Source: a virus (Duplodnaviria > Caudoviricetes). From it: a stretch of 53,120 nt of DNA. The first letter of the stretch is position 1. Each line of letters opens with the position of its first letter. Location of the stretch: IMG/VR virus record IMGVR_UViG_3300035633_000512, positions 1 to 53,120 of that record; one strand, written 5' to 3'. The translations under genes and the position numbers were made by a program. Below are positions 27,744-52,075 of this stretch, one piece after another. The notes beneath the pieces are model-generated. The model worked only from the letters and a program-made list of their open reading frames with translations. It did no database searches and was not told the origin of the DNA.

Positions 27744-27753
27744 TCCGGTGACC

Positions 27754-28110
27754 ATGGCGACCCCAAAGCAGGCAGCCGACAAGAAGACCGAGGACTACTG
27801 GACGAACTACTTCGGCGAGTATGGCCGGATGTTCGTTCGGGAAATCCCGCGTGTCATCAAGGCAGCGGTTCTCCCCGACTTCCGCCGCACCGCGAACGGT
27901 GAGCAGCGCCGAATCGAGGTCAAGGCGTCTCAGGTGGTGCCGCTTGGCTACACCGTCACCGCGGAGAACGGGCTGCACCTCGACGGTGTCGTCCGAATGA
28001 CCGTCGCGGAGAAGGGCGAGCTGCGCACCGCACAGCGTCTCTTCCACGCCGAGTTCAACGCGGACGGCGACCTCGCGGTTCTGAACACGCGAAAGGCGCC
28101 GGTGGCCTAA
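27754..28110 (+). CDS. Putative head-associated protein
   Basis: First gene after the late promoter; shares an ADKKT...Y..Y.G.YG...IPR module with 31799..34132; has KQA, RTA and RTAQ motifs. Confidence 0.75.
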   Translation: MATPKQAADKKTEDYWTNYFGEYGRMFVREIPRVIKAAVLPDFRRTANGEQRRIEVKASQVVPLGYTVTAENGLHLDGVVRMTVAEKGELRTAQRLFHAEFNADGDLAVLNTRKAPVA

Positions 28111-31100
28111 GTGAAGACGCTCGAAACGCTGCGCCGCCTCGGCGGCAAGTCCCCTCGTTCGCCCTTGGCCGACGTGGCGTCCGAGCTGGTCGCCCGCGTG
28201 AACGCTGCCGAGGAGCAGCGCATGCACGAAGCCCACGCCCGCCAGGCCTCCCTGGGGGGTGGCGCCGGCCCCATCCTCTCCGTCCTGAAGAAGCGCCTCG
28301 CAGAGGCCAACGCCGCCAGCCTGGTCAACAACGCGGCACCGGCCATCACCCGCGCAGACTTCCACCAGCTGCTGCGTGAGGCGTCCTCGAAGGAGCCCAA
28401 AGACCGCGGGCTCGGTCGAGCCGCAACCCACGCATACCGTCTCTGGTCCAAGGAGGCGACAGGCGCCCTCACTGTCGGTGACGTCGCCCGCTTCCGCGCC
28501 CACTACCACGAGGAGTACCCGCGCTCCAAGGTCGCCTCGGTCATCGACACTGAGGTCCCGAAGCTCGGCTTCAACGTCCTCCCGGCCGCCAAGCTGGCCC
28601 GCATTGCCGCGCAGATTCAGCGCGCAGGCGGCGACCAGGCCGCGTACAACGAGGCCATGGTCCAGTACGGGCTCGACCAGCAGACGGCGCACGCTTTCCG
28701 CTGCCGCGCCTTCGTGCGCGCTCTGGTCGCAGCGTCCGACGAGCACGAGGCCGAGGACGAGGGCCATGGTGAAGAGCGCATGGCGCGTCGCCTGAAGGCA
28801 CGCCTCGCCACCGACGAAGACCCCATTCTGCGCCGCTTCGCCCAGTTCGAAGAGGACGACGGCATGCTGGAAGAGGCCGACGAGCTGCACTTCGATGAGG
28901 AAGGCAACGTGGGCTCCGAGCAGACCGTCGACTCGCCGATCACCGGCGAGCCGCTCCACATCGAGCTGGAAGAGGGCAGCTCCGAAGACGTGCCCGAAGA
29001 AGACATGACCGCGGGCGGTCCTCTGCCCCAGGGCATGGAAGTCATGGGCCAGCTCGAAGACTTCGCCCCCGAGTCCGTCACGGTCATGGAGGACCCGACC
29101 GACCCCGACGGCGGCGAACTCGAAGTCACCGTCCGCCCGCTCGACGACGCGGGTCCGATGCCCGAGCCCGACGACGCTCCGGTCGAGCTGTCCGACGAGG
29201 ACATGACCATCATCGGTCGTCGCATCGCCCGCGGCATGTGCGGCAAGTGCGGCGGAGACCACGGCATGCACGAGGCATGCGCCTCCCGCACTGCCGACGA
29301 TGAGCGCGAGTTCACTGACGATGACATCGAAGCGTGGGAAAAGTCGGTCGAGCACTACGCCGGCGCCCAGCAGTACGCCGTTTACGCCTCGGTCAACGGT
29401 GAGATGGGCAAGAAGCCCATCGACAGCTTCCCTGCCGTCAGCATGTCCGCCGCTCTGAAGCGCATCGCGCGCCACGGCGTGCGTGGTCAGCTCCTCGGCA
29501 ACCCGGACCGTCTCGGCACCGAGTGCTACGTCGAGCTGCAGGACGGCAACCATCTTCTGATCCGCGCTGCGGAACAGCAGCCCGAGCTGAAGGGCAAGGA
29601 CGAGGCGTTCGAGCCGGACGTCCATGACCAGCAGCCGGACTCGCTCTCGGTCACCGACGACATCCTGCTCGGCGACAAGACCATGGGCAAGCAGCACCAC
29701 CCGTTCGCCGCTCTGGCCGACTCCGTCCTCGACGGACGTACGGCGAAGCGCGCCGGCTGGGAGCTGCAGGTCAACGGCGACGCCGACGTCGTCCTGACCT
29801 ACCAGGGCAAGCAGAAGCGCAAGGCCTCCCTCGGCGAGCTGGACGAAGTCGTTCGCGAGTTCGTGGACGCGTCGGCGCCACCCGCGCCCCGGCAGCTCCA
29901 CTACGCCGCCCACAAGCACACCGCCTCCGGTGAGTACTTGGTGGTCACGGACGTCCCCGGAGACACCGAGGACCAGCGACACAACGCCAAGCGCATCCTC
30001 CACGCGATCCAGAAGGTCATCCCTTCAGCGCGCGGTGTCCTCCGCAAGGACGCCAAGCTGCAGTTGAAGTTCGCCGCCGGCGAGCCTGAGCTGGGCCGTG
30101 TGCGTCGCATCCTGGAGGACCAATACCGAGCCAAGGAGTACCGCATCGCGCAGGTCGACATGCCCCCGAGCCCCGGCTCGACCGCCAATGAGGGCACCGC
30201 TCAGCTGACCCCGGCCGACCCGAACCAGCTGGTGCAGAACCCTCCGGTTCCTGCCGGCACGGTGCAGCAGCCTGCCGCCCCCGCGGCCCCCGCCCAGCAG
30301 CCGGCCCAGCCGGCTCCGGGTGGCTACGTCGGGCCGCCCCAGGCTGCCCCGGCCGCACAGCCTCAGGCCGCCAAGACCACCAACCGCGCGGTCGAGGGCA
30401 GCTGGCTGATCACCTTCAAGGACCCCTCGGGCAACACGGCCGAAGCGCCCGTTCAGGCACGCACCGCAGGTGTGGCCAAGGACCTCTTCGAGCGCTTCAA
30501 CGACGACTGCGAAGTCGTCAAGGTTGCGCAGTTCATGGAGGTCGCGCCCGGTGAGCCCATCGGCGGAGGCGAGGACGTCCCGCTGCCGGTCGCCGACATG
30601 CTCGACGCCGAGTCGGTACCTCCCGATTCAGGTGCACCAGCACCAGCACCCATGGGCATGGATATGGGGGGCTCGTCACTCTCTCCTGAGGAGAACGACG
30701 CCCTGCGTGCAGCCCTGACCCACTACCGCAACCAGGGACTGGGCCCGATGTCTGCGCTCGACCAGATCGCGTCGCAGTACCAGGACCTCCTGTCGCACCA
30801 CGGCGATAAGACCGACACGCAGCGCCACGACATCGAGGCCGCCATCATGGCGATGGTCCCCGAAATCTGGGCGCAGCCGGCCCTGCTCGACAAGGCCGCG
30901 CAGATGCAGCAGGTCATTCCGCAGGTGCCCGAGCAGATCATCGAGGGCAAGCCGCTCGGCTTCGCGGACATGAACGAGCCGCAGAAGTCCTCGGTCACGC
31001 TCGTTTATCTGGACAACCCGGTGCAGGATGACATGCAGGCCAAGAAGAAGTTCATGGCCAACATGCACCGCGTGATGACCATGACGTCGCGTCTTCTCGG

Positions 31101-31812
31101 CGCGGACCTCCACGTCGAAGGCAACGTCAACTCGCTGGTCTGGGAGCTGCAGGGTGCCGACGCTGACAAGGTCAAGGAAGAGCTGCAGCCCTACACCTCG
31201 CAGGGCATCCGGTTCCAGGTGAAGAAGCGAGCCCAGCTGACCGGCAACGAGCCTGCCGTGAACACGCAGCAGCCGGACTACGTCCAGGTGCCTGCGGACC
31301 TCGGTCCGGACTCGGAGACCGACGACGCGGCGTCCAACGCTGTCGAGGCGCCCAAGGTGAACCAGCAGGTTCCCGCGCAGTCGCAGCCGGGCACCTCGGA
31401 CTCGGTCGAGGCGGGCGCTCCGCTCGGCTCGGACTCCGAGACCAAGGACCCCGGAAGCTTTGGCGCACCGAAGCCGAAGGCGCAGCCCGACCAGCAGCCT
31501 CAGCAGGGCGAGTCGCACGCGTCGACCGAAGGACCGGCCGCCGGTCTGGGAGCCGACTCCGAGACCGACCCGAAGATCCACAAGCACATGGACGATGTCG
31601 CGGCCCGTGCAAGCGGGGCCACGCGCAGCGCAAACGCGCGCCTCGACCAGCTCTATGAGCTAGGAGAGCGCGTGACCAAGTCGGCTGGCCTGAAGTCGTC
31701 TGAGGAGCTGTACGCGAACGCGGAGGTTCAAAAGTTCATCCGCGACCACGGAATCGACAAGAACGCGGCCCTGGACGTGGTGCGCGAGGTTCTGCCGAAT
31801 GACGCTGACTGA
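28111..31812 (+). CDS. Large acidic putative internal head protein (1233 aa)
   Basis: Long ORF with strong codon bias, acidic and Pro-rich linkers, many K/R-x-A-Q motifs and LGxDSET repeats. Confidence 0.8.
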   Translation: MKTLETLRRLGGKSPRSPLADVASELVARVNAAEEQRMHEAHARQASLGGGAGPILSVLKKRLAEANAASLVNNAAPAITRADFHQLLREASSKEPKDRGLGRAATHAYRLWSKEATGALTVGDVARFRAHYHEEYPRSKVASVIDTEVPKLGFNVLPAAKLARIAAQIQRAGGDQAAYNEAMVQYGLDQQTAHAFRCRAFVRALVAASDEHEAEDEGHGEERMARRLKARLATDEDPILRRFAQFEEDDGMLEEADELHFDEEGNVGSEQTVDSPITGEPLHIELEEGSSEDVPEEDMTAGGPLPQGMEVMGQLEDFAPESVTVMEDPTDPDGGELEVTVRPLDDAGPMPEPDDAPVELSDEDMTIIGRRIARGMCGKCGGDHGMHEACASRTADDEREFTDDDIEAWEKSVEHYAGAQQYAVYASVNGEMGKKPIDSFPAVSMSAALKRIARHGVRGQLLGNPDRLGTECYVELQDGNHLLIRAAEQQPELKGKDEAFEPDVHDQQPDSLSVTDDILLGDKTMGKQHHPFAALADSVLDGRTAKRAGWELQVNGDADVVLTYQGKQKRKASLGELDEVVREFVDASAPPAPRQLHYAAHKHTASGEYLVVTDVPGDTEDQRHNAKRILHAIQKVIPSARGVLRKDAKLQLKFAAGEPELGRVRRILEDQYRAKEYRIAQVDMPPSPGSTANEGTAQLTPADPNQLVQNPPVPAGTVQQPAAPAAPAQQPAQPAPGGYVGPPQAAPAAQPQAAKTTNRAVEGSWLITFKDPSGNTAEAPVQARTAGVAKDLFERFNDDCEVVKVAQFMEVAPGEPIGGGEDVPLPVADMLDAESVPPDSGAPAPAPMGMDMGGSSLSPEENDALRAALTHYRNQGLGPMSALDQIASQYQDLLSHHGDKTDTQRHDIEAAIMAMVPEIWAQPALLDKAAQMQQVIPQVPEQIIEGKPLGFADMNEPQKSSVTLVYLDNPVQDDMQAKKKFMANMHRVMTMTSRLLGADLHVEGNVNSLVWELQGADADKVKEELQPYTSQGIRFQVKKRAQLTGNEPAVNTQQPDYVQVPADLGPDSETDDAASNAVEAPKVNQQVPAQSQPGTSDSVEAGAPLGSDSETKDPGSFGAPKPKAQPDQQPQQGESHASTEGPAAGLGADSETDPKIHKHMDDVAARASGATRSANARLDQLYELGERVTKSAGLKSSEELYANAEVQKFIRDHGIDKNAALDVVREVLPNDAD
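31300..31566 (+). repeat. Three LGxDSET peptide repeats
   Basis: LGPDSET (31300), LGSDSET (31423), LGADSET (31546). Confidence 0.8.
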
Positions 31813-34132
31813 CGAGAACTTCCTCTTCCCGGCTGAACGGGAAGAGGCGCCCCGCTTCGACTTCCGGACTGCGCTCCGCGGGGTCGGCGACCCCATGCGC
31901 CGTGCCGGCCACGACTTCTTCAGCGACTTCGACGGGACGCCCGTCCCTGACTCGGGGGAGCCCTTCCGCGTCGGAGACACGGTCGAGTACGTAACGCCCG
32001 ACGAAGTCCGTCGGGTGGGCACCCTTCTGCGTCCGCACGACGAGCAGAACTGGCTCGTCCAGGTTGACGAAGGGTTGCAGCACATCGTTCCGCACAGCGA
32101 ACTGCAGCCGTCCATGCGGACCCCTCGTCACGCTCAGCGGGCACGCGCTCAGGCCGCACTGCAGCGGACGTCAGACTGGAAGATGCGTCGTCAGCCCGAG
32201 GCGCGCGAGGACGGCACCACGCTCCTCACCATCGACGTGGGGCACGGCCGCGTTGCTGAGGCTGAAGTCGAGGCCTACGTGCGCAATGCAGGCTACGAGC
32301 CGCGCGACGCCAGCCGCTCGGGCAACCTCCTGCGCGTCATCGCCCAGGACTTGCCTCAGCCCAGCCCCTCAGAGCCTGACCGCGGCGCTGAGCCCGGGCT
32401 GCACCGCGAGGAGATCGAAGGCACCGGCATGCCGGAAGGCAAGCAGGTCTGGTCTGCGCTCGAAGCTGCAGGCTTTCAGCTCGGCGCCATGATCGATGAC
32501 GGCGCGGTCATCACCCGCTCGTTCACCGTTCCGCACAAGTACCTGACGCCGGCCGGCCGCGTCACTGCGAGCCTTTCGGTTGACTGCTCGCCCATCAGTG
32601 GGCACTTCGAGTACTCGCCGTCGGACGACACACTGCGCCGCTTCGTCTACACCGCAGAGGGTACCGTCGAGATGCCGTACTCTAGCGGCACCGGTCCGCA
32701 GTCGACCCGCGAGGACTACTCGGGCGGCTTCGCGGACGGCGACTACGTCGTGAAGGCGGAGTCGGAGGCTGAGCATCAGATGGACGCCGCCGAGTCTCGG
32801 GGCGACATGACCACCGAGGCCGCCGACAAGAAGACCAAGAAGTACTACAAGAAGTACTATGGCCCGTACGGTGAGAAACTCACCCGCGACATTCCCCGTC
32901 GCGTGAAGAAGGACTCGGAGCTGGCGGAGGCGTTCCGCTCCACTGCAAACCGCGCCCCGACGCCCGAAGAGATGACGGCCATTCGCGCCATCTGCACGGC
33001 CGGTGTCGTGTCGTGGCTGTCCCCGCGTCACGCCCAGAAGGTCGAAGCGCGTGACCTGGTCAAGACGCTCTTGAACGCCGCAGGCCAGAACCTCGCTATC
33101 AAGAAGCAGCTCGACCGCATCGTGCTGAAGCAGATCGGCACGGACCCGCAGGCGTTCCTGGGCCGCGTCGACCCGACCATCTACCCCCGCATCCTCTACA
33201 GTGAGGTCACCGGCGGTGAGTCGCAGCGTCAGCTGATGAAGCTCTACCGGCAAAACCAGGACCAGCGTCCCGCAGACTTCGGCTCGCCCGAGGACTTCCA
33301 GGAGGGTGGCAGCCCCGCCGCGCCGGGACGTCAGGTCGACCCGTCGCAGGGCCCCAGTTTCGGCGAGCGGGTGCGCGACACGGCACGCGGCATCGGCGAC
33401 GCCGTGAAGTCGCGGATCCCGGGAACCCAGCAGCACCAGGACCGCCTGGTGCAGCAGGTCGAGGAAGACGACTACCAGGACGAGCTGGCCCGCTCGCAGG
33501 TGGAGCCCTCTCCGCAGCGTGCACCGGCCGCTCCAGCCCGTCAGCCCGCCCCCCGCTCGGACACGGTCCGCGACTCTGGGCCACCCGCTGCGGCTGCGCA
33601 GGGCTCCGGCACTTCGCGTGCGGAGGCGGAAGCGCTCCTGGCCCAGACCGACATCGGCGAGAGCCTCGCCCCGGCGGCTAAGGAGCAGGCCATCCAGCAG
33701 ATCATGAAGCAGGGCCCGGACGCCTTCAAGTCGAAGACCGGCGTCCTCGCACGTGCGGCAGCTGCAGGCGACAAGGCACCGGCCCCCGCCGGCGCTCACA
33801 ACCGCCAGAAGCCGCTCGGACACCAGGTCCGCCCGAAGCTGGACCGCATCACGGCGCAGGGTCAGTACCTCTGCATCGACCTGGTCTGGGACCCCGAGGA
33901 GTGCCGCGGCATGTCCTCAGGCAACATCCGGCACAACGTGGTCACCTGGATGAAGGGTCTGGCCACGCTAAAGGAAGACCACCCGGACCTCGGCACCATC
34001 GGCAAGCCGAAGTTCAAGCTCTTCGACCCCGAAGCCGGTTTGGCTCGACTCCTCGTCCGCTCCTCGGAGGGCCGCTCGTTCCCGCAGGAGCTGTTCGAGG
34101 TGGAAGGACGAGACAATGACACCCGAGCCTAA
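31799..34132 (+). CDS. Modular putative head protein (777 aa)
   Basis: SH3-like FRVGDTVEY segment, two PRHAQ motifs, ADKKT module. Confidence 0.78.
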   Translation: MTLTDENFLFPAEREEAPRFDFRTALRGVGDPMRRAGHDFFSDFDGTPVPDSGEPFRVGDTVEYVTPDEVRRVGTLLRPHDEQNWLVQVDEGLQHIVPHSELQPSMRTPRHAQRARAQAALQRTSDWKMRRQPEAREDGTTLLTIDVGHGRVAEAEVEAYVRNAGYEPRDASRSGNLLRVIAQDLPQPSPSEPDRGAEPGLHREEIEGTGMPEGKQVWSALEAAGFQLGAMIDDGAVITRSFTVPHKYLTPAGRVTASLSVDCSPISGHFEYSPSDDTLRRFVYTAEGTVEMPYSSGTGPQSTREDYSGGFADGDYVVKAESEAEHQMDAAESRGDMTTEAADKKTKKYYKKYYGPYGEKLTRDIPRRVKKDSELAEAFRSTANRAPTPEEMTAIRAICTAGVVSWLSPRHAQKVEARDLVKTLLNAAGQNLAIKKQLDRIVLKQIGTDPQAFLGRVDPTIYPRILYSEVTGGESQRQLMKLYRQNQDQRPADFGSPEDFQEGGSPAAPGRQVDPSQGPSFGERVRDTARGIGDAVKSRIPGTQQHQDRLVQQVEEDDYQDELARSQVEPSPQRAPAAPARQPAPRSDTVRDSGPPAAAAQGSGTSRAEAEALLAQTDIGESLAPAAKEQAIQQIMKQGPDAFKSKTGVLARAAAAGDKAPAPAGAHNRQKPLGHQVRPKLDRITAQGQYLCIDLVWDPEECRGMSSGNIRHNVVTWMKGLATLKEDHPDLGTIGKPKFKLFDPEAGLARLLVRSSEGRSFPQELFEVEGRDNDTRA

Positions 34133-34376
34133 GACCAAGCTCGTCAGCCGGTCGCGTACGGCCTTGTCCATCGAGCTGAACTCGTTGGTGCCCAAGTCGT
34201 CGCCCCGCATGCGTCGCGCTTCGCCCTACGCCATGGTGCCACTCAGCCTGAAGCCGATGGCCTCCGTCGACCTGAAAGACGTCCTGAACTGCGACGCGAC
34301 AGAAGCTGCTCGCGTCATCGAGCGCACGCCTCAGGTGCAGATGCTGCTCCGACGGGGGCTGCTGGAGGTTATCTGA
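34116..34376 (+). CDS. Small hypothetical protein
   Basis: 86 aa; TGATG coupling to the next gene. Confidence 0.7.
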   Translation: MTPEPKTKLVSRSRTALSIELNSLVPKSSPRMRRASPYAMVPLSLKPMASVDLKDVLNCDATEAARVIERTPQVQMLLRRGLLEVI

Positions 34377-35161
34377 TGGTTGCCGGCTTCCCCGAGATCG
34401 TTCAGCGGCAGCCGAAGTGCAAGCTCTGCCAGCTGACTGAGACCAACCGTGGCCTGTTGAAGCTGGTCCACCGGTTCCGCTACGAGGAGCAGCTCGGCAA
34501 TGACGCTCTACGAACCAAGGTGCGTGGCGTCTTCGAGCGTCAGGGCATTGCGTGCCCGAGTCCTCGGTCCTTCGGACGTCACTTCGACGACCACGTCGAC
34601 TTCAGCCGCCTTCCGGACGACGACGCTCTGGCCATGCCCGAGACGTTGGAGGTCACGCTCAACCGGCTGGAGACAGACGCAGGTGAGCTGCGCCTCGCGG
34701 ACCCTGAAGACCTCGCGCTCGGGCGAAACAACTCTGACTACCATCAGCTGACGGCCCTCTTCATGCGACTGCAGCGACGCATCGAGGCCTTGGACCAAGA
34801 CCCCACCGCGTTTCAAAACGCGGACGGCTCGCACTCCTTCAACAAGCTCGGCACCTGGGCGTCGCTCATCGACGGCGCGCGCAAGATCGTCGAAGGCTTG
34901 AACAAGATGCGAAACGGCGACCGGATGACCGTCTCCATCTTGGAGCAGCACACGAAGCGTTTCGCCACGGCCATCAGCCGCCCTGTCGCCCAAGAGCTGC
35001 GCGTCATTCAGGGCATGCTCGAAACCTCCGCAGACCCCCAAGCCCGACAGGCAGCTGAGGCGATTTCCCAGTTGCTGAATGTGGGGGTCTCCACCATCAT
35101 GACCGACGCGGCCGTCCAGTCGCTGCGCGATTCCAAGGAAGCGTACAAGCTACTGAACTGA
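34376..35161 (+). CDS. Putative terminase small subunit or DNA-binding protein
   Basis: N-terminal CKLC...RHFDDH with an HTH-like segment, helical C-terminus, upstream of terL. Function is inferred. Confidence 0.45.
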   Translation: MVAGFPEIVQRQPKCKLCQLTETNRGLLKLVHRFRYEEQLGNDALRTKVRGVFERQGIACPSPRSFGRHFDDHVDFSRLPDDDALAMPETLEVTLNRLETDAGELRLADPEDLALGRNNSDYHQLTALFMRLQRRIEALDQDPTAFQNADGSHSFNKLGTWASLIDGARKIVEGLNKMRNGDRMTVSILEQHTKRFATAISRPVAQELRVIQGMLETSADPQARQAAEAISQLLNVGVSTIMTDAAVQSLRDSKEAYKLLN

Positions 35162-35295
35162 GTCATGCGCTTCCTAAGTATCAGACCGCTTGAAGACCGA
35201 GCGAGCGCCGCTTCGGCGAGACCCCTTCCAGCCACGTCAGGTGACGCGACGCGCCTGAGCAGTGTACAGTAGAGCACGTCGCAGGAGACCAAGAC

Positions 35296-35865
35296 ATGAG
35301 CTTCCCCAACGCATTCACCCTCACCAACCTCGCGTCGCGCGCCCTCGCGCTCGACGCCAAGTTCTCCGAGGACCGAGCCCTCCGCCGGAGCCTTCCGGTC
35401 GGCGGCTCGATCACCTTGGCCCCGAGTGACCTCGACGGTGCAACCCTCGACGAACTCGACCGCAACCCCCAGATCGCGCAGCTGATTGCTGACGGCGACC
35501 TGTCGATCACCATGACGCAGGGGCCGATGGTCAGCTTCCAGCTGGAAGTCGCAGCCGACGCGGGCACCGACGCTGCGGGCGTCCTGCTGCTCGGCCCCGT
35601 GCCGTTCGACATCCGCCTGACCCAGGTCACCGTCGACGTCCCGACCGGCGTCACATCCTCGACCCTGACCCTGGCGGACGCAGCCAGCTCGGGCAACGCC
35701 TACACCGGCGCCATCGACACCGACGGCACCCCGGCGTTCATCGCAGCTGCGGCGCTCACCGAGAACCGAGTCATCGCCAAGGGCAGCTCGCTCTTCGGAC
35801 AGCAGTCGGCCACCGCGAAGCCCGCCGTGACCATCACGCTTCAGGGGATGCGCGTCAGCATCTAA
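35296..35865 (+). CDS. Putative virion structural or decoration protein
   Basis: AGGAG RBS; Ala/Thr/Gly-rich beta-type C-terminal domain. Confidence 0.65.
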   Translation: MSFPNAFTLTNLASRALALDAKFSEDRALRRSLPVGGSITLAPSDLDGATLDELDRNPQIAQLIADGDLSITMTQGPMVSFQLEVAADAGTDAAGVLLLGPVPFDIRLTQVTVDVPTGVTSSTLTLADAASSGNAYTGAIDTDGTPAFIAAAALTENRVIAKGSSLFGQQSATAKPAVTITLQGMRVSI

Positions 35866-36950: not shown

Positions 36951-37734
36951 GGACAAGCTGACCCGCCTCATTCAGAAGGCCATGAACACCAAGCAGGCCG
37001 AGACTGCCTGGGACCTCGGGGACATCGACCTCGAACGGCGCCCGCTCGACCAGCGTGAGCACCCTGGCGCGGCAGCCATCCTCCTCGTGCGCGAGGCCAT
37101 GGCGCAGTTCGAGATCCCGTCCGAGGTGAGCCTCACCTACAAGGGCATGCGTCGCGCGTCGGGTCACGGGCAGCATCACCTGACCGACGGGCTCATTGAG
37201 GTCAACGCCGACTTCCGCTCCATCTCGGGCACCAAGCACCACGTCAACGTGCCGGTCATCGTGCACGGGGGCTACATGGTCTTCCCAGAAGTCTTTCAGC
37301 ACGAGGGTCAGACGCACGTCATGGCGCAGTCGGCCTTCGACGAAATCCTGAAGCGCGGCAACGTCTACCAGAAGATGCAGGACCGCAAGAATATGTACTC
37401 GCCGCACTTGGAGGAGCGCTCTTCGCCCGCGCCCGTCCCGGCGGTGGGCAACGGCCTGTTCGGCGTTCACGCGAGCAGCAAGCAGGCCGACCACACGCCT
37501 CACGGGCTCGACCCCGCCGAGCGTGACCACTCGCGGCAGCATCAGCCTGGTGACAAGGTCAAGCTCTCCAACGAAATCCAGGCACGCCTTCGTGGCGGTT
37601 CCCGCATCGTGTACACCGCAGGTACCGAGGTGACCGTCATTCGGGACATGGCCGGCGACGGGTACACGTACTACTGCGAGTTCCCTGACCGTCGCAGGGC
37701 GCCAGTCCACTATGCTGACCTCGCAGACGCCTGA
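36940..37734 (+). CDS. Hypothetical head-module protein with a C-terminal SH3-like domain
   Basis: Two KQA motifs; QPGDKVKL...GTEVTVI...YYCEF. Confidence 0.72.
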   Translation: MSRKDKLTRLIQKAMNTKQAETAWDLGDIDLERRPLDQREHPGAAAILLVREAMAQFEIPSEVSLTYKGMRRASGHGQHHLTDGLIEVNADFRSISGTKHHVNVPVIVHGGYMVFPEVFQHEGQTHVMAQSAFDEILKRGNVYQKMQDRKNMYSPHLEERSSPAPVPAVGNGLFGVHASSKQADHTPHGLDPAERDHSRQHQPGDKVKLSNEIQARLRGGSRIVYTAGTEVTVIRDMAGDGYTYYCEFPDRRRAPVHYADLADA

Positions 37735-39784: not shown

Positions 39785-39785
39785 C

Positions 39786-44834: not shown

Positions 44835-44840
44835 ACCAGC

Positions 44841-47069
44841 ATGAGTGAGATCGAAGTCTTCAGCCCCTACGGCGACCCCCGCAAGCAGGCCAGCCGCCGG
44901 GCGCCTCTGATGTCACCGCGAGGTCCCGACACGCCGCACGGGCTCACAGGACGTCAGGTGGAGCGTATGGCGAGCCGCATGGAGGAGTTTCTCCCCAAGC
45001 TCGGCTCGAAGTACGGCAGCGTCAACGACGTCCTCGGTGACATCCTCCCGGACGGGGCGACGCTGTCACCAGGCGCTGGGGCCGGCTATAGGGAAGCCCT
45101 GCGCCGGCACGCGAACATTCCCGCCGGGGCGGGCGGGTTTGGAGGCTCGGGCGTCGGTGGGCAGGGCGTCTTCCAGACGACGCAGCGTCCGTACCAGCCC
45201 GAGTTCGAGTCGCCCGACCGTCAGCAGTACCCGGTCCATCGGATCCTGGCGAACCGCTACTGGCGCCTGTTCTACAAGCTCGACCACGTCATCGGCAACG
45301 GCATCGACATGTACGGTGACCTGCCCTGGGGCAACTGCGAGTTCAGCGGCGACGGTGTCGACGGCGAGGTGAAGGACATGATGGAGCTGGCCTGGGACGA
45401 GTGTCAGATGCGCTCCATCTTGCCGGCCGCTACCCGTGAGTTCTTCGTCGTGGGCGAAGCGGCGCCACACCTGTTTTGGGACGACACCAAGGGGATCTGG
45501 ACCTACTGCGCACTCCACAACCCGGACCAGCTGGAGGTGGTCGACGCGCCCTTCATCAAGATGGACCCGGTGGTCGAGTTCATCCCGGACCAACGCCTGC
45601 AACAGGTGCTGACCTCGAACCATCAGATGCTCCGGCACGTGCGCGACTCGATGCCGACTGAGCTTCTGACGCGCCTGATGGCCCGACAGAACATCCCCCT
45701 GTCGCCGGTCAACTTCACGTTCCTTCCGCGCAAGCTCCACCCCTACGACACGCGCGGCACCTCGATCTGCAGTCGCATGTGGCGAATCCTCATGTACGAG
45801 GATGCTATCTACAACGCGTCCATCGCGACCGCCCGCCGGCACGCTGGCCCCATCAAGGTGGCCAAGCTCGGTAACCCACAGAACGACTGGATTCCGGGTC
45901 CTGAGCACGAGCGCAAGCTCCTGGAGCTGCTGGCTCAGGCCGAGCTGGACCCGAACGCCTGGCTTGTCTACCACTACGGCATCAACTTCGAGCTGGTCGG
46001 CACGACCGAGCGCGTGATGACCATCGACAAGCACAACGAGACCATCGAGCGCGTGAAGCTGATCGCTTTGGGCATCAGCAAGGCCTTCCTCCACGGGGAA
46101 GTTACATATGCATCGGCCGCTTCTGGGCTCACTGTGTTCCTGTCGCGCCTGAAGGCGCTGCGCCAGTACTTCGAAGCGAAGTGGCTTCTGCCCAAGTTCT
46201 TCTTCCAGATGGCGAAGATCAACAAGTGGGTGAAGCCGACGCAGGCCGAGCTGTCTTCGCGTGTGCGCATCCGCCGTTCGCATCGCGAGCTGTCCGAGGA
46301 CGCTCGCTACATCGTGCCGAAGCTGGAGTGGGACCGCACGCTCGACGCGTCCGTCGACAGCGAGATGCTCGGCGCGCTGGAGGCACTTCAGAACCTCGGC
46401 GTGCAGGTCAGCAAGTCCACGATCATGTCCCTGGTCGGACGCGATTTTGAAGACGAGACAAAGCAGCGCAAGAAGGACTACGAGTTCGAGAAGGAGAACC
46501 TGCCTCCTGAGATGCTCGTGCAGCCGGACGCCGAGGGTGGAGGCGGCGGTCCGTCCATGCTTCCGGGCATGGACCCGGGCGCCTTCGGAGACGTTGCCCC
46601 CGACCTGGAGGGCGGCGAAGGTCCGCCTCCGGACGCCGCCGGCCCTGCCCCCGAGGGCGCAGGCTACAACGCCGACGACGGCTCTACGGGCGCACCGGCC
46701 CCCGACCCCTTCGAAAAGGGCGACCGGGTCAACATCTGGACCAAGTTCGACATCCGCGACCTGATGGACCTCCTCGACGGCGAGGAGCCCGAGGACGAGC
46801 CCTGGCTGGGTGCCTTCAAGGACCCCGACGTCCGCTACGCCCTGAAGGGCGAAAACCGCCAGGAAATCTTCGAGGCGGTGAAGGAGTACCTGGAGCGCGA
46901 GGAGTTCCCGCCAAGCTCGGTCCGGGCGCTTGTTGACATCCTCAAAGAGATGAACGTCATCAAGCGAGGCAGCGCAGCCCGCGCTCCCAGCGAACGTGCG
47001 CGTGAGGCGCAACTCCTTGATATGATTGATGGTTATGGCGGAAATGACCTCTTGACAGGTAGAGGGTAA
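44841..47069 (+). CDS. Portal protein
   Basis: Lies between terL and the protease; RLFYKLD..IGNGID, EFFVVGE, RGTSI, PIKVAKLG, LGISKAFLHGEVTYASA; acidic C-terminal extension. Confidence 0.8.
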   Translation: MSEIEVFSPYGDPRKQASRRAPLMSPRGPDTPHGLTGRQVERMASRMEEFLPKLGSKYGSVNDVLGDILPDGATLSPGAGAGYREALRRHANIPAGAGGFGGSGVGGQGVFQTTQRPYQPEFESPDRQQYPVHRILANRYWRLFYKLDHVIGNGIDMYGDLPWGNCEFSGDGVDGEVKDMMELAWDECQMRSILPAATREFFVVGEAAPHLFWDDTKGIWTYCALHNPDQLEVVDAPFIKMDPVVEFIPDQRLQQVLTSNHQMLRHVRDSMPTELLTRLMARQNIPLSPVNFTFLPRKLHPYDTRGTSICSRMWRILMYEDAIYNASIATARRHAGPIKVAKLGNPQNDWIPGPEHERKLLELLAQAELDPNAWLVYHYGINFELVGTTERVMTIDKHNETIERVKLIALGISKAFLHGEVTYASAASGLTVFLSRLKALRQYFEAKWLLPKFFFQMAKINKWVKPTQAELSSRVRIRRSHRELSEDARYIVPKLEWDRTLDASVDSEMLGALEALQNLGVQVSKSTIMSLVGRDFEDETKQRKKDYEFEKENLPPEMLVQPDAEGGGGGPSMLPGMDPGAFGDVAPDLEGGEGPPPDAAGPAPEGAGYNADDGSTGAPAPDPFEKGDRVNIWTKFDIRDLMDLLDGEEPEDEPWLGAFKDPDVRYALKGENRQEIFEAVKEYLEREEFPPSSVRALVDILKEMNVIKRGSAARAPSERAREAQLLDMIDGYGGNDLLTGRG

Positions 47070-47100
47070 TCGGCCCCGGAAGTCTTCCAAACCGTACTAT
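47070..47100 (+). promoter_or_regulatory. Putative late promoter TCGGCCCCGGA-N10-ACCGTACTAT, copy 2
   Basis: Matches 27713-27743; ATG 47109 follows after 8 nt. Confidence 0.75.
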
Positions 47101-47108
47101 GGGGGTGC

Positions 47109-47228
47109 ATGGAGCAGTCCGGTTTCAAGAAGCGGGGCACGCAGGAGGGTGAATCCCTCGGCACTGTGCCGTCGCCTGCACCCGCGCCGAAGCCCGACGA
47201 AGACAAGGACAAGGGCAAGGGTAAGTGA
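47109..47228 (+). CDS. 39-aa leader ORF coupled to the protease gene
   Basis: Hand translation MEQSGFKKRGTQEGESLGTVPSPAPAPKPDEDKDKGKGK; GTGA overlap with 47225. Confidence 0.55.
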   Translation: MEQSGFKKRGTQEGESLGTVPSPAPAPKPDEDKDKGKGK

Positions 47229-50080
47229 CGACCGGCTTCCGTAAGACGGCCAAGGTCGAGCACGTTGCCACGCTCGCCTTCGATGCCGACAACGGCGGGC
47301 TCCGCAAGACGGCGCAGCTCGACTCCGCGTCTGACGCCGCCCAGCGCTCCTACTACCTGGACGGCTCGGCCAAGGTCGACGTCCGCGGCATTCTGGAGCG
47401 CCAGGCGCAGAAGTTCGCGATCAGCGCGGACCCCTCAGACTACCTCTTCGAGGTCATTCGCGCCAACACGACCTCCGTCTTCAACGACAACCATGACGGC
47501 TTCGCCCGGGAAGAGCTGCTGCGCTTCGACCCGCGCCTGAAGACCGCGGTCTTTCTCACCTACCGCGAGAAGCCGCACCACGTGAACCACCGCACCGACA
47601 ACCCCAAGCGTGCGCGTGGCGTCATCCTCGACAGTCACTACAACGCCGAGGCCACGCCCCTGGAGAACTGCCCTGGCTGCAACCTTCGCACGGCCGAGCG
47701 CAAGAACCGCGACAAGTCCGGCATTTACTGCCGCCGCTGCGCCACCGTCGTCAACGACGAGTTCGTCGAGATCCTGGTGGCGGTCGACAAGAAGAAGGAC
47801 CCCGCATTCGCCCGCGCCGTCGAGACCGGGCAGCTTCGCTTCGGCTCGATGGGCTGCACCTGCGCCGAGACCGTCTGCAACGTCTGCGGCAACGTCGCCC
47901 GCACCCAGCGCGAGTTCTGCAAGCACATCGCTTCGCACAAGGGCAGCTACTGGGCCAAGAAGGCCGACGAAGACGACTGGTCCAAGATCAACCCCCGCAC
48001 CGCCGAGGCCGAGATGAAGCGCCGCAAGCGCGCCTTCCATCAGCGTGACTTCGTCGCTCTGAAGGCCGAAGACGGCTACGAAGTCCGCAAGGCCGCCGAG
48101 TGGTGCCAGGGCGTCGAGTACGACGAGTACTCGCGCGTCCACATGCCGGCCGACCCGAAGGCCGAGCGCATCGAACTGCTCAACAAGGCAGCTGGCGCAG
48201 GCGACCCGACCCCCGAAGACCTGCGTTCCGAGACCGCCCACCTGGTCGCGGCAGCACGCACAGCAACGCGCGGCCGTCGTCAGAAGGCCGCGGGACAGGA
48301 GAGAGCAGCGATGAAGTTCTACGTTGTGCGCGTCGATGGAGACCCGCTCGACACCTACGCGGCCGAGTCACTCGACATGGCCCTCGAAATGGCCGGACCT
48401 GAAGAGGGCGCCCAAATCGAGGTGGCCGAGGTCGAGGCGGATGACGCCGGCGCCGCTCGTCTGATGCCGAGCGACGAAGACTACCAGCCCCACATGGGTG
48501 CGGACGCCAACCACGAGATGGAAGGCGACGTGACCATCAACATCACCGAGGACCCGGCCACCGGTGAAGAGTCGGTCGAAACGGTCGACGACCCCGCGCC
48601 GGACCCCACGAGCATCGAGGACTTCACGGATGAGGTCCTCAATCCAGAACCAGAAACCCCCGGAAGAGACGAGTTCTCGCCGGAGGAGCTTGGCGTCATG
48701 CCTGCAGGCGCCAGCAAGGAGGCAACAGCAGTGCAGCACACGAGCTACGCCGACTGGTCGGTGCAGGTGACGCCTCAGGGAGTCGCCCAGGTCATCGCTC
48801 CCAGCGGCCCCGCCCTCTTGGTCACCCCCAAGAAGGCACTGAAGGACGACCAGGCCAAGATGGCCTTCGGTCAAGAGATCATGGACCACCTCTGCGACCA
48901 CGGACTGCTCCGTACCGCGGAGAAGTACGAGGCCAACTTCCATGCGAAGTTCGCATCCGTCGTCGACGGCGCGATCGACGACATGAAGGAGTACTCGGAC
49001 AAGGACAGCAAGCCGGACGTCGCCTCCGGAGGCGAGTCGGACATGGCTGGCGAGCACGGTGGCGATCAGCGCGGCATGCACGCAGACGACGTTCGCGACG
49101 AGAACCACACCGACATGGAGCCTGGTTCCCGCGAGCCCAAGGTCGAGATGACCGACCAGAACCGCGCCAGCGACCACGAGCTGGGCAACACCGACGACCG
49201 ACCCGACTCCTCGTCGGAGAACGAAGGCTCGGACATGCGCGAGAAGCGCCCCGAGTTCTCGGTCTCGCAGGACGACGCTCTGCAGAACGCGGTCTTCGAC
49301 CACGCTGAGCGCGTTGCGATGGTCGGCAAGTGGGTCGAAGGGCCCGAAGGCAAGACCGCCAAGGTCGCTTCCTACGCCAAGGAGGCGCAGACCTTCACCC
49401 TCGTCGACAACAAGCTGTCGCCGAGCGAGGTGCAGGCCGGTGACCTCATCAAGCAATGGAAGCAGCTCGACCAGGCGCCCTCCTCGTACGAGGACAACCT
49501 GAAGCGCTGGGCCAAGACGGAGATCGAGAAGGCGCGCAAGGCGGCCGTCTCGGATGTCTTCCGCGTCATCCGCATCGCAGCGCAGCGTTCACACAAAGGC
49601 CTGGAGCGCTCGCCTCTGAAGGAGGCGGTCGCGACCCAGCTGGCGAACCAGAAGGTCGTCGGACACGACGGCGTGTCTCGGGCTCCCCTGGAGTACCAGG
49701 GCATGAGCGACGAGCTGGCCATCCACCTGGTGGAAGCGGCATTCGCCGACGCCGGCGAGCGCGACATCGACACTCTGCTTTCGCGAGCTGCCAAGCTCAT
49801 GAAGCACGACACCAACTTCCTGAAGTCGGCAGAGACCGACCTCAGCAAGACCGCCCACCGCGTGCCGGTGGTCACCGCGGCATCCATGGTCGACGACCTG
49901 GACCGCGAGGCAGAGGTGCTGCGCCGCAGCGCCTCCGCAGGAAATCTCGAACTTGCACCGCAGCCGTCCGAAGACGAGCGCTCCACGCGAGTCGCCGCTC
50001 AGACGAACGGCAACGCGGGCAAGATTCGTTCCGCATTGGGAGGAACGCGGGCAGCAGCCCGCATCCAGCTCCGACAGTAA
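47225..50080 (+). CDS. Prohead maturation protease with Zn ribbons, fused to a long scaffold-like region
   Basis: NDNHDGF...KPHHVNH...RGVILD...VEILVAVD...GSMGC...CNVCG...CKH (His/Ser arrangement like HK97-type proteases); lies upstream of the capsid genes. Confidence 0.75.
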   Translation: MTTGFRKTAKVEHVATLAFDADNGGLRKTAQLDSASDAAQRSYYLDGSAKVDVRGILERQAQKFAISADPSDYLFEVIRANTTSVFNDNHDGFAREELLRFDPRLKTAVFLTYREKPHHVNHRTDNPKRARGVILDSHYNAEATPLENCPGCNLRTAERKNRDKSGIYCRRCATVVNDEFVEILVAVDKKKDPAFARAVETGQLRFGSMGCTCAETVCNVCGNVARTQREFCKHIASHKGSYWAKKADEDDWSKINPRTAEAEMKRRKRAFHQRDFVALKAEDGYEVRKAAEWCQGVEYDEYSRVHMPADPKAERIELLNKAAGAGDPTPEDLRSETAHLVAAARTATRGRRQKAAGQERAAMKFYVVRVDGDPLDTYAAESLDMALEMAGPEEGAQIEVAEVEADDAGAARLMPSDEDYQPHMGADANHEMEGDVTINITEDPATGEESVETVDDPAPDPTSIEDFTDEVLNPEPETPGRDEFSPEELGVMPAGASKEATAVQHTSYADWSVQVTPQGVAQVIAPSGPALLVTPKKALKDDQAKMAFGQEIMDHLCDHGLLRTAEKYEANFHAKFASVVDGAIDDMKEYSDKDSKPDVASGGESDMAGEHGGDQRGMHADDVRDENHTDMEPGSREPKVEMTDQNRASDHELGNTDDRPDSSSENEGSDMREKRPEFSVSQDDALQNAVFDHAERVAMVGKWVEGPEGKTAKVASYAKEAQTFTLVDNKLSPSEVQAGDLIKQWKQLDQAPSSYEDNLKRWAKTEIEKARKAAVSDVFRVIRIAAQRSHKGLERSPLKEAVATQLANQKVVGHDGVSRAPLEYQGMSDELAIHLVEAAFADAGERDIDTLLSRAAKLMKHDTNFLKSAETDLSKTAHRVPVVTAASMVDDLDREAEVLRRSASAGNLELAPQPSEDERSTRVAAQTNGNAGKIRSALGGTRAAARIQLRQ

Positions 50081-50105
50081 GTCGGACGGCTAAAGGAGCA
50101 AGCAC

Positions 50106-50867
50106 ATGGGATCGATTGGTAACACTGGTCGCATCGCAGCCTTCCAGTCCGATGTTTTTGCGTCGGGACTGGACCTCGGTCGCTCGGAGATCATCCGCGA
50201 CCTGGGCGTCTACCGAGCTGCAGATGCAGCGACCATTCTTCAGGGCCAGATGGTGTCTTTGGACGCCAATGGCGAACTCGCTCTCGCGAACCTCGTCGAC
50301 ATCGTCGGCGTCGCGAAGTGGAACAAGGCAGCGGCCGGCACCTCGGTGCAGGTCGACGAGGCTGTCACCGTCGTCTACGGCGGCGTGACTCAGCTGTCCC
50401 GCGGCAACGTCTCGAACCTCGCGGTTCGTGCAGCAGCGGGTGGTGGCACGCTCATTCCGGAGACGGACAACTACACCCTGTCGGCGGCGAACGGCACCCT
50501 CACTTGGGACAACCCGCCCACTGGCACGGCTGCCCCGGCGAACGGCGCCACCGTCTTCGTCACCTACACGTTCGACCTCACGGCAACGGACTACCGTTTC
50601 CAGGGTCTGAACTTCTTCAACCGCCTGGATGACGTGGGTGGTCTCTCGGAGGGTCGTCTGACGATCGTCCAGGGTCCCGCCACCCTCTTCACCACGCAGT
50701 TCGTCACCTCTGAGGTCTACGCGGTCGGTGCCCCGCTGTTCTGCACCGCGGCAGGCCTCTTCACCGTCACCAACTCCAGCTCGGAACTGGTCGGACATGT
50801 GGTTCAGCCGCCCACGGCGGACGACCCCTTCCTCGGCCTGAACTTCCAGGCAGGACGCGCGGCGTAA
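50106..50867 (+). CDS. Capsid decoration/cement protein with an inserted beta domain
   Basis: Directly before the MCP; ILQGQMVSLDANG...YAVGAPLFCTAAGLFT...VGHVVQPP; insert NYTLSAANGTL...GATVFVTYTF. Confidence 0.7.
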   Translation: MGSIGNTGRIAAFQSDVFASGLDLGRSEIIRDLGVYRAADAATILQGQMVSLDANGELALANLVDIVGVAKWNKAAAGTSVQVDEAVTVVYGGVTQLSRGNVSNLAVRAAAGGGTLIPETDNYTLSAANGTLTWDNPPTGTAAPANGATVFVTYTFDLTATDYRFQGLNFFNRLDDVGGLSEGRLTIVQGPATLFTTQFVTSEVYAVGAPLFCTAAGLFTVTNSSSELVGHVVQPPTADDPFLGLNFQAGRAA

Positions 50868-50881
50868 GGAGCAACTGAACC

Positions 50882-52075
50882 ATGCCAAAGCGTAACCCCT
50901 ACGAGCAGGTCATGGGCGGAGGCAACAAGCCGTCGTCCGCCCAGGGCATCCAGACCCCGACGAACACGCGACTCGCGTCGCGTGCTCAGGAGGGCATCCA
51001 CGACGAGAGCGGCGCCTACAACCCCCGAGCATTCGGTGGTTGGGACTCGCTCGGACAGGCCGTCCCCTCGGCCCACAACCGTCTCTTCAACAAGGCGGGC
51101 GAGCTGAACGCTTCTTCGAAGGAAGACGCGCTTGTGCAGATCGCTCACTTGCTGCAGAACGTCTCGGGCTCGCCCGTCAGCAAGCAGGCTTTCAGCAAGC
51201 AGGCTGGCCAGAGCGACATGGACCCCAACGAGCGCCGTGAGGTGCTGGCTGCGGCCATGAAGGACCCCGAGGGCTTCACCATCCTGGGTCAGGAGCTTCT
51301 GCTTCCGATCAAGGACCTGGTCGACTACGAGGGCTGGGCCCGCAAGGTCTACCGCGTGCGTCCGCTCGCCCAGGGTGAGCTGTTCCGTATCGCGAAGGAC
51401 GTTCGTTCCACTGCCTGGATCGTCGGTCAGGACGGTCAGGCTCTGGAGAGCCGTCTGTTCGGCAAGTACGTCCAGCCCTCCGAGTTCAAGATCAGCGCGT
51501 ACCCCACGGTCGACATCGAGGACATCTACCAGATGAACTACGACGTCCTGGACCGTGCTCAGGACACCGCGCGCCAGGAGATCGAACTCGAAGAGGACAA
51601 GCGAGCCCAGGCTCTGCTCGACGTCGCGGCCCGCACGGTGAACACCGTGACGACCTTCGCGACGCTCGGCGTCGGTGCCTTCGAGGACGTCCGCTTCCAG
51701 GTGGAGCGGAATCGTCTCGTCGTCTCCAAGTTCCTGATCAACCGTCAGGAGCTGTCGGACATCATCAAGACGATGTCGACCCAGGTCGACCCCGTCACCG
51801 AGCGAGAGCTGATTCTCGCTGGCTACATCGGCTCGTTCCTCAACGCGCAGATCGTCACTGCGGCCGGAACCGGCGTGCAGGAAGTCGTGCCCGCAGGCAC
51901 CTTCTACGCCGTCACCGACCCCGAGTACATGGGCGAGATGGGCGTTCGAGTCGAGCTGTTCTCGGAGCCCTTCAACATGTTCGCGCTGCGTCGCAGCGTG
52001 AAGGGTTGGGCCTTCACCGAGATCATCGGCTTCGCGGTGGTGAACCCCCGCGCAGTCGCCGTCGGCCAGAAGTAA
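50882..52075 (+). CDS. Major capsid protein (HK97 fold inferred)
   Basis: 397 aa, AAGGAG RBS, strongly biased codons, followed by a terminator; DYEGWARK...P.EF.I...EEDKR...GWAFTEIIGFAVVNPRAVA. Confidence 0.85.
   Translation: MPKRNPYEQVMGGGNKPSSAQGIQTPTNTRLASRAQEGIHDESGAYNPRAFGGWDSLGQAVPSAHNRLFNKAGELNASSKEDALVQIAHLLQNVSGSPVSKQAFSKQAGQSDMDPNERREVLAAAMKDPEGFTILGQELLLPIKDLVDYEGWARKVYRVRPLAQGELFRIAKDVRSTAWIVGQDGQALESRLFGKYVQPSEFKISAYPTVDIEDIYQMNYDVLDRAQDTARQEIELEEDKRAQALLDVAARTVNTVTTFATLGVGAFEDVRFQVERNRLVVSKFLINRQELSDIIKTMSTQVDPVTERELILAGYIGSFLNAQIVTAAGTGVQEVVPAGTFYAVTDPEYMGEMGVRVELFSEPFNMFALRRSVKGWAFTEIIGFAVVNPRAVAVGQK

Follow-up and report, generated by a model that had tools for sequence, protein, structure and literature searches.

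A basic-x-alanine motif in the head proteins of an uncultured giant phage is a candidate prohead protease substrate code

The DNA described here is IMG/VR virus record IMGVR_UViG_3300035633_000512 (Duplodnaviria; Caudoviricetes), positions 1 to 53,120, and this whole stretch of 53,120 nucleotides is called the window below. It comprises the replication and head modules of an uncultured giant phage related to Virus Rctr197k. The subject of this report is a short protein motif, a lysine or arginine followed by any residue and then alanine ([KR]xA), that is over-represented in the predicted head proteins of the window and may constitute the substrate code of their prohead protease. The window has a guanine-plus-cytosine (GC) content of 64% and begins with a block of early genes (748-27560) in which PHROG families identify helicases, exonucleases, a DNA polymerase, a thymidylate synthase and a ribonucleotide reductase. 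The head module follows on the + strand, as do all of its features given below. It opens with eight unannotated genes (27748-37734) and continues with the large terminase, a protein of 1720 residues, the portal, a 951-residue protease fusion, the protein p253 and the major capsid protein.

Virus Rctr197k is the closest named relative, with a capsid protein that is 71% identical. Remoter matches are to phage G, PaBG, Lu11, Erwinia jumbo phages and 209 Mycobacterium phage records. The gene order p120-p1233-p777-p261-p361-p264-large terminase-p1720-portal is retained in a complete relative (G001) that is used for comparison below.

A preliminary description of this sequence had proposed that a pattern [KR]x[AG][QSA] punctuates most late proteins and is less conspicuous in replication proteins. 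All of the tetrapeptides it listed (29/29) are present in the proteins it named, and the gene it called 27754 corresponds to the open reading frame (ORF) at 27748-28110, with an ATG at 27754. The counts reported here compare a late set of 15 ORFs with an early set of 21 replication ORFs. The strict pattern occurs 66 times in the late set, where whole-protein shuffles predict 35.6 (z 5.2), and 26 times in the early set, where 32.0 are expected, so the replication proteins are not enriched. Local composition was controlled by shuffling within blocks of 20 residues. Under this control, [KR]xA is found 155 times in late proteins versus 104.6 expected (z 5.4) and 84 times in early proteins versus 95.5. 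The late-versus-early comparison against a composition-controlled background, which the description itself had named as the check, therefore yields an excess in late proteins only.

Two elements of that proposal are modified by the counts. Glycine in place of alanine is unsupported in the window ([KR]xG, 60 versus 68.7; [KR]xG[QSA], 13 versus 15.0), and [KR]xG[QSA] is slightly raised across 18 homologs of the protease fusion (47 versus 29.8). In addition, the motif does not extend to most late proteins alike. An excess is present in the 951-residue fusion, p1233, p361 and p120, and is absent from the large terminase, p777 (10 versus 10.6), the portal and the capsid protein.

Patterns that alter the spacing, order or identity of the motif residues behave differently in the late set. 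Ratios of observed to expected counts for Ax[KR], [KR]A, [KR]xxxA, [DE]xA and [KR]x[LV] lie between 0.89 and 1.08, and that for [KR]x[ST] is 0.76; [KR]xxA is slightly raised (126 versus 103.7, z 2.5). An unbiased scan of the window covered 1478 gapped dipeptides in the late set and 1576 patterns in the early set. RxA is the top late pattern (z 4.9), and LxxxA, LxR and KxA are also among the top eight. A single window would not settle the motif, because in the early proteins, which serve as the control, an unrelated pattern scores z 4.5. The window alone is suggestive, not decisive, and it is the replications in other genomes that carry weight.

Two other sources of the signal were considered and rejected. 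A motif at the DNA level is not apparent, as the 155 instances are encoded by 133 different 9-mers and their codon usage is ordinary. Helix periodicity was likewise set aside, since controls with i+1, i+4 and reversed spacing are flat. As a separate observation, the most over-represented gapped dipeptide in the replication proteins is I-x-E (41 versus 22.7), which may be due to chance among the 1576 patterns.

The first set of relatives consists of 55 IMG/VR loci whose capsid proteins are 53-78% identical to that of the window. They contain 51 ORFs that match the 951-residue protein, of which 18 cover at least 60% of it. Every sequence of this protease fusion family, the window included, has a z score of at least 2.0 for [KR]xA (19/19; sum 527 versus 272), with control patterns near 1, and these z values are not independent since the sequences are related.

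Two complete relatives were examined on a genomic scale, with ortholog sets fixed by BLAST alone and not by the motif. In G001 (178 kilobases, 41% GC), 111 proteins of at least 150 residues were scanned, and z is highest for three orthologs, those of the protease fusion (4.7), p361 (4.3) and p1233 (3.6). The same three proteins head the ranking in the window itself (6.2, 3.9 and 3.5, respectively). Among 1547 patterns, KxA ranks 2 in the 15 late-gene orthologs of G001 (94 versus 55.9), where only CxxC is higher, and 640 in the other 97 proteins. In G004 (192 kilobases, 59% GC), an unknown protein of 238 residues heads the list, followed by the ortholog of p264 (4.1) and by both halves of a protease fusion that is split there (3.6 and 3.1). 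KxA and RxA rank 2 and 7 of 1478 in its late orthologs, and 118 and 435 in the rest. Lysine replaces arginine in the motif as GC content drops from 64% to 41%, which points to a constraint at the protein level. In all, the head-module enrichment recurs in orthologs from genomes of 41%, 59% and 65% GC. The 238-residue protein of G004 (52742-53458, - strand) is an unannotated product encoded near the head module and has the strongest [KR]xA excess of that genome (9 versus 3.0, z 4.2); BLAST finds no ortholog for it among the late proteins of the window.

The signature is also found in a cultured phage. When the 106 proteins of at least 150 residues from Mycobacterium phage Myrna are ranked, the top three are gp97 (z 4.1), gp87 (z 4.0) and gp96 (z 2.8), all of which are encoded beside the portal and capsid genes. 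Myrna gp97 (1211 residues; locus L061, 6878-10513) is annotated as a 'tape measure' protein. Its N-terminus is homologous to the protease domain of the window and its gene lies two genes upstream of the capsid protein, and the label is probably wrong.

The broadest comparison used a profile of the protease domain, which retrieves 2466 cluster representatives (50% identity) at E <= 0.001. Of the 150 best matches, 116 are at least 600 residues long; they represent separate 50%-identity clusters, and only the parts after residue 300 were counted. [KR]xA occurs 2321 times in these sequences versus 1300 expected, with z above 2 in 89/116 and above 0 in 114/116. Of 1600 patterns, KxA (z 23.9) comes first and RxA (z 22.0) second; the dipeptide AS follows in third place, and KxxQ is among the first ten.

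Residues flanking the motif are also non-random. In the window, leucine is favored four residues before the alanine (27 versus 11.8), threonine just before it (19 versus 7.9), and glutamine and serine just after it (16 versus 7.3 and 15 versus 8.1). When these positions are combined, L-x-[KR]-x-A is observed 27 times versus 8.0 expected and [KR]xA[QS] 31 times versus 10.3. L-x-[KR] without alanine is flat (68 versus 64.9), so the alanine is obligatory. Across 2294 instances in the family, glutamine (2.5-fold), serine (1.9-fold) and alanine (1.4-fold) are preferred after the motif alanine, as the final position of the originally proposed pattern had anticipated. Phenylalanine is favored there as well, and proline shows the strongest depletion (0.31-fold). 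The residue before the alanine is preferentially phenylalanine, threonine or isoleucine, and is seldom aspartate, glycine or proline. The upstream hydrophobic preference is weak in the family and spread over two positions (isoleucine 1.7-fold, leucine 1.5-fold). Proline depletion together with a preference for glutamine or serine after the alanine would fit what is expected around a scissile bond.

The protein richest in the motif is the 951-residue fusion (47225-50080; 39 versus 16.7, z 6.2-6.3), whose gene lies between those of the portal (44841-47069) and p253 and the capsid protein (50882-52075). Its N-terminus matches a head maturation protease family (phrog_18299, E 4.3e-23) and also phrog_2774. 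An AlphaFold2 model of residues 1-300 has a mean predicted local distance difference test score (pLDDT) of 77.2, and the protease domain, with a zinc-ribbon insert, spans approximately residues 40-300 (47342-48124). When this model is compared with 48,161 chains by VIA-align, T4 gp21 (5jbl_A) is the sole outlier (Z 7.5, root-mean-square deviation 3.4, 138/165 residues), and the next unrelated row scores Z 4.4. The herpesvirus proteases match weakly, with varicella-zoster virus (VZV) 1vzv_A at Z 4.0 over 94 aligned residues and human cytomegalovirus (HCMV) 8j3s_A at Z 3.1. Look-alikes of the protease in the Atlas include Peptidase_S77 clusters at 0.91, which serves as a lead only. As modeled, the domain has a fold of the T4 gp21/assemblin type.

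Residues H118, H119, H122, S208 and H234 are invariant in 16 sequences, and the zinc-ribbon cysteines C149, C152, C169 and C172 nearly so. The zinc-ribbon insert formed by these four cysteines (residues 149-172, 47669-47743) is missing in one locus (L053). A second cysteine/histidine cluster (C211, C213, C218, C221, C232 and H234; residues 211-234, 47855-47929) surrounds the putative catalytic Ser208. H234 may be a zinc ligand with C218, C221 and C232 rather than a catalytic residue. We know of no metal sites in prohead proteases.

The remaining 651 residues of the fusion are modeled as helices, small beta modules and long disordered stretches (pLDDT 59.7), an arrangement compatible with a putative scaffold role. 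Several candidate sites in the fusion are conserved in distinct homologs well beyond expectation (a slash marks the putative scissile bond throughout). KTA/K at residues 7-10 (47243-47254) is represented by [KR]xA in 15/17 homologs (2.2 expected) with the consensus F-x-K-x-A, and is kept as FKKTAA in the split protease gene of G004. KTA/Q at residues 28-31 (47306-47317) is found in 16/17 (1.9 expected), where the flanking identity is only 0.11. A cluster of candidate sites follows the protease domain at residues 245-360. Within the scaffold-like region, KFA/S at residues 575-578 (48947-48958) recurs in 16/18 (2.4 expected) with the consensus P-[KR]-[LFVI]-A-[QSN]. Finally, RSA/L and RAA/A at residues 935-945 (50027-50059) lie 7-17 residues from the C-terminus and are found in 17/18 (3.8 expected), with the consensus K-R-x-x-I-R-x-A-[VL]-G-x-T-K-V-A.

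The major capsid protein (397 residues, 50882-52075) matches the major head protein family phrog_2522 from residue 72 onward (E 5.6e-65). Its total count of the motif is unremarkable ([KR]xA, 5 versus 4.4). Residues 114-393 align to residues 5-277 of the 280-residue chain of phage G gp27 (6wkk_A, E 7.1e-37). The gp27 gene encodes 282 residues, and its start matches approximately residue 110 of the window protein. Residues 1-108 (50882-51205), a candidate propeptide, are absent from phage G gp27, and the extension of the window protein thus ends at SKQAFSKQAG. Judged from this alignment, an HK97-fold core is preceded by a seemingly dispensable N-terminal extension. The mature start near residue 108 that the preliminary description had predicted coincides with the place where the 282-residue protein of phage G begins. 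Among solved structures, the Myrna capsid protein matched only phage G gp27, which carries no information on a mature end.

The extension, of about 110 residues, is variable and partly of low complexity in 56 homologs, and three motif positions are kept within it. A conserved double site, KQA/F-S-KQA/G at residues 101-109 (51182-51208), marks the junction of extension and core. In the region aligned to residues 95-110, all 48 distinct homologs carry [KR]xA (48/48, 7.5 expected), typically in forms such as TKKA/SPGTFYREA/S or TKTA/GAREFFKTA/E. The site RLA/S at residues 30-33 (50969-50980) is represented by [KRH]x[AGT][SN] in 27/44 distinct homologs (0.6 expected) and by the stricter [KR]xA[SN] in 14/44 (0.3 expected).

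Head proteins of this phage are probably cut at [K/R]-x-Ala, and we put the probability that this motif is the substrate code of the prohead protease at roughly 60%. The preliminary description had read the motif as prohead protease recognition sites with a basic P3 and a small P1 residue. Head-specific enrichment, the gp21-type fold, the position of the capsid junction and the preference for glutamine, serine or alanine agree with this, and glycine at P1 has no support in the window. In the mechanism that we propose, the product of 47225-50080 would be a prohead serine protease of gp21/assemblin fold fused to a scaffold-like region of about 650 residues. During procapsid maturation it would recognize (hydrophobic)-x-[K/R]-[T/F/I/Q/x]-Ala followed by Gln, Ser or Ala, and would most likely cut after the alanine, with the basic residue at P3 and Ala at P1. 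It might trim its own N-terminus at residues 7-10 and 28-31 and free itself from the scaffold part through the cluster at residues 245-360. The scaffold part would then be chopped into pieces, with the conserved extreme C-terminus released at residues 935-945. The capsid protein would lose its extension of about 108 residues at KQA/F-S-KQA/G, the portal N-terminus would be trimmed, and the large unannotated head-module proteins p1233, p361, p120 and p264 would presumably be processed as well. Under this mechanism p1233, p361 and p264 would be packaged in the head. What the data themselves show is the enrichment, its confinement to these proteins, its conservation among genomes and the fold.

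Several observations weigh against this interpretation. We infer cleavage, and the bond that is cut, wholly from sequence. Chance accounts for about 105 of the 155 late instances of [KR]xA, or about two thirds, and the top early pattern is barely under the top late one (z 4.5 versus 4.9). A site within the first 50 residues is found in 11/15 late and 10/21 early proteins, which is no clear separation. Of the 49 [KR]xA instances in variable context, only 10 hold their position in half or more of the homologs, and this fraction of 0.20 is within the range of the control patterns (0.00-0.34). The portal and capsid protein have few conserved sites and no general enrichment, and many sites of the scaffold region are in predicted helices rather than in the long disordered stretches. 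As for the enzyme, Z 7.5 to gp21 is under the caution line of 8 given by the tool itself, and the candidate catalytic residues are proposed from their conservation. Foldseek finds no match for the protease model in the PDB at E <= 0.001, and a sequence search of solved structures with the fusion and with a 16-sequence profile retrieves no protease. Pfam assigns residues 1-300 to no protease family at E <= 10, Peptidase_S77 (PF03420) included, and returns only weak zinc-ribbon matches. In PaBG, Lu11 and pEa_SNUABM_17, which have small separate proteases, the 'ATPase' proteins (634-676 residues) encoded upstream of the capsid genes are not enriched (2 versus 6.3, 5 versus 9.1 and 2 versus 4.8).

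The motif could instead be a docking or targeting signal that promotes co-assembly into the procapsid and is never cut. Such a shared assembly signal would also be expected to show a head-only distribution and positional conservation, and the many sites in predicted helices would suit it. T4 internal proteins, according to the available portion of one source, carry a capsid-targeting sequence (PMC5694885). We consider this explanation unlikely, however, as docking would not call for 25-40 copies in each protein at positions that turn over rapidly, a pattern that matches fragmentation of the T4 gp22 type. The capsid site falls precisely where the extension missing from the related phage G ends, and the residue preferences after the alanine fit a scissile bond.

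Slightly harder to sustain, and quite unlikely in our estimation, is a protease signal in which the cut follows the basic residue, so that leucine would be P3 and alanine P2'. In T4-type proteases P3 is hydrophobic and the bond that is cut follows the residue two positions further along. The T4 rule Leu/Ile-x-Glu would thus be parallel, and the leucine excess four residues before the alanine, with LxR and LxxxA in the top 6 of the 1478 late patterns, could be read in this way. The alignment to the start of phage G gp27 is as compatible with a mature end at residue 107 as with one at 109. However, alanine and not leucine is the obligatory partner of the basic residue, the strongest preferences concern the residue after the alanine (from glutamine at 2.5-fold down to proline at 0.31-fold) with only a weak hydrophobic preference upstream, and AS takes third place among the 1600 patterns of the family comparison.

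A last explanation is that the motif has no specific function and results from the composition or secondary structure of helical proteins rich in Ala and Lys/Arg, or simply from chance. In its favor, these proteins have many Ala and Arg residues at 64% GC, the motif was selected after the fact, an unrelated pattern scores z 4.5 in the control set and [KR]xxA reaches z 2.5. This explanation is nevertheless already hard to hold and very improbable: the excess survives 20-residue block shuffles, the reverse, i+1 and i+4 spacings are flat, the excess recurs with K for R in a genome of 41% GC, where it is limited to the orthologs, and it ranks 1 of 1600 patterns in a comparison of 116 proteins that each represent a different 50%-identity cluster.

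Read as a protease code, the motif can be compared with characterized maturation systems. In T4, gp21 reduces the scaffold and core proteins to short fragments and also cleaves off N-terminal propeptides; SPN3US cuts after Glu at A-X-E, and T4, phiKZ and 201phi2-1 also cut after Glu (PMC5694885, in its available portion). The window protease resembles T4 gp21, phiKZ gp175 and SPN3US gp245 (MEROPS S77/S80) in its late-gene context and in its best solved match, 5jbl_A at Z 7.5. It would also share with the T4, phiKZ and SPN3US systems the logic of a short P3-x-P1 motif that is repeated in scaffold or internal proteins, at N-terminal propeptides and at sites of protease self-processing (PMC5694885 and PMC10052503, as far as their available portions go). 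Unlike the motifs of those phages, which end in Glu, the one described here ends in Ala with a basic residue two positions before it. Patterns of the x-E kind (L/I-x-E, S/A/G-x-E and A-x-E types) are absent from the top 12 of 1478 in the late proteins, a statement about enrichment only. The window protease also differs from these three in being fused to a scaffold-like partner, in having a zinc-ribbon insert and in giving no Pfam S77 match.

Herpesviruses offer the other parallel. Their pUL26 joins a protease to a scaffold and is cleaved behind Ala, often before Ser. A cut at the release site frees the protease, and one close to the scaffold C-terminus frees the scaffold from the capsid protein; in pseudorabies virus the sites are YLQA-T and VQA-S (PMC4498786, in its available portion). 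Like this assemblin (MEROPS S21), the window protein has an N-terminal protease and a C-terminal scaffold-like region, with candidate sites that follow the protease domain and others 7-17 residues before the end of the protein. The third rank of AS among the family patterns and the excess of [KR]xA[QS] in the window are compatible with a cut between Ala and Ser. The two differ in that the fold scores are weak (VZV Z 4.0, HCMV Z 3.1) and in that there are dozens of sites per protein here, not two or three. The assemblin consensus has a hydrophobic residue two positions before the Ala. That residue is basic here, and, unlike a herpesvirus, this virus has a bacterial host and a tailed virion. The capsid protein itself is like HK97-type proteins with a cleaved N-terminal delta domain, as an extension of about 108 residues precedes the HK97-fold core and ends with a conserved candidate cut site. 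It departs from the HK97 type in that a separate scaffold-like region is also present, as the C-terminal part of the protease fusion.

Rules of proteolytic maturation are known by experiment for few tailed phages, and in T4, phiKZ and SPN3US all cuts follow Glu, as far as the available text of the sources extends. The phage protease rules in the portions of the literature consulted are Glu-directed only (PMC5694885, PMC10052503). No report of a basic-x-Ala rule for phage proteases was found in the literature searched, in which few subscription journals were covered, and the available portions of papers on PaBG, phage G and Myrna give no cleavage sites. It is a tentative proposal, somewhat short of even odds, that a large and mostly uncultured lineage of big myoviruses uses a scaffold-fused protease of gp21/assemblin fold that cuts after Ala as in herpesviruses and not after Glu as in T4 and phiKZ, and that the same code marks p1233, p361 and p264, or Myrna gp87 and gp96, as packed and fragmented capsid cargo. 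The lineage encompasses 2466 protease clusters at 50% identity, including relatives of Virus Rctr197k and cluster C mycobacteriophages.

If true, this would supply a second rule for a protease family of 2466 cluster representatives that includes 209 Mycobacterium phage records. Annotators could then predict the mature ends of capsid, portal and scaffold proteins and recognize internal head proteins across thousands of giant phages not yet cultured, and the motif could predict virion-internal, possibly injected, proteins from sequence alone. In addition, both the Ala-Ser specificity of herpesviruses and their fusion of protease to scaffold would have a parallel among phages, a point relevant to the common ancestry of the two groups. 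The rule is directly testable in cultured Myrna, whose gp97, gp87 and gp96 carry the signature.

The other late proteins vary in how well they conform. The portal (742 residues, 44841-47069; phrog_16240, E 1.8e-73) is not enriched overall ([KR]xA, 9 versus 7.0; family sum 159 versus 142). Two of its sites are conserved. KQA/S at residues 15-18 (44883-44894) is kept in 8/13 distinct homologs with aligned residues (1.0 expected), with the consensus G-D-x-R-K-Q-A-[SA], and RHA/N at residues 89-92 (45105-45116) is kept in 14/17 (1.8 expected).

Unannotated p1233 (1233 residues, 28111-31812; [KR]xA, 29 versus 16.4) matches no PHROG or Pfam family and is, from its sequence, a candidate processed internal head protein. 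Its ortholog ranks 3/111 in G001 (z 3.6), and several sites align among three genomes. A DUF192 domain (PF02643, E 7.2e-20) occupies residues 84-178 of p361 (361 residues, 35865-36950; [KR]xA, 11 versus 4.0), whose G001 ortholog ranks 2/111 (z 4.3). We know of no role for DUF192 in phage heads. Most sites of p361 and p1233 differ in position between genomes. In p361 these shifts suggest turnover of redundant sites; equally, many of the listed instances may be due to chance.

Smaller late proteins carry candidate sites near their N-termini. The small protein p120 (27748-28110; [KR]xA, 5 versus 2.2) has KQA/A at residues 7-10, and p264 (36940-37734; 5 versus 3.1) has KQA/E at residues 18-21. The orthologs of p264 score z 4.1 in G004 and z 2.0 in G001.

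Between the protease fusion and the capsid protein lies p253 (50106-50867), which has a weak Ig-like match (phrog_807, E 2.2e-5) and 4-5 [KR]xA versus 1.5-1.7 expected (family sum 79 versus 68). In phage G and Myrna the corresponding position is taken by a gene for a decoration or minor capsid protein, and p253 has no sequence similarity to the phage G decoration protein gp26 or to Myrna gp98. The last three codons of p253 (50859-50867) give it the ending ...GRAA, and the separate protease of Erwinia phage pEa_SNUABM_17 (locus L060, 7025-7804) ends in ...LLRMA. Both natural C-termini resemble the product of a cut after [KR]-x-A, an anecdotal likeness.

The large terminase (37712-39784; phrog_17415, E 6e-57) has 3 [KR]xA versus 5.3 expected and is a late protein that serves as an internal negative control. 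Between it and the portal gene, 39672-44834 (+ strand) encodes the 1720-residue protein, which has a phosphatase/polynucleotide-kinase-like segment at residues 960-1076 (phrog_1238, phrog_415) and a segment of the 2'-5' RNA ligase superfamily at residues 1230-1333 (PF13563). With these segments it resembles a multi-enzyme 'polyvalent' protein. In the window it shows no [KR]xA enrichment (22 versus 18-19), and one G001 ortholog has z 2.9.

Two minor observations concern the related genomes. Outside the head module of G001, the patterns GxT, TxxT, GxxG and TG are over-represented about twofold (z 16-20), which points to one or more long Gly/Thr-rich repeat proteins. In the Virus Rctr197k record (KX853510.1, 30000-63000), the terminase, the giant protein, the protease fusion and several neighbors are annotated only as misc_feature entries of the form 'similar to ...', not as coding sequences, which suggests frameshifts or sequencing errors in that record.

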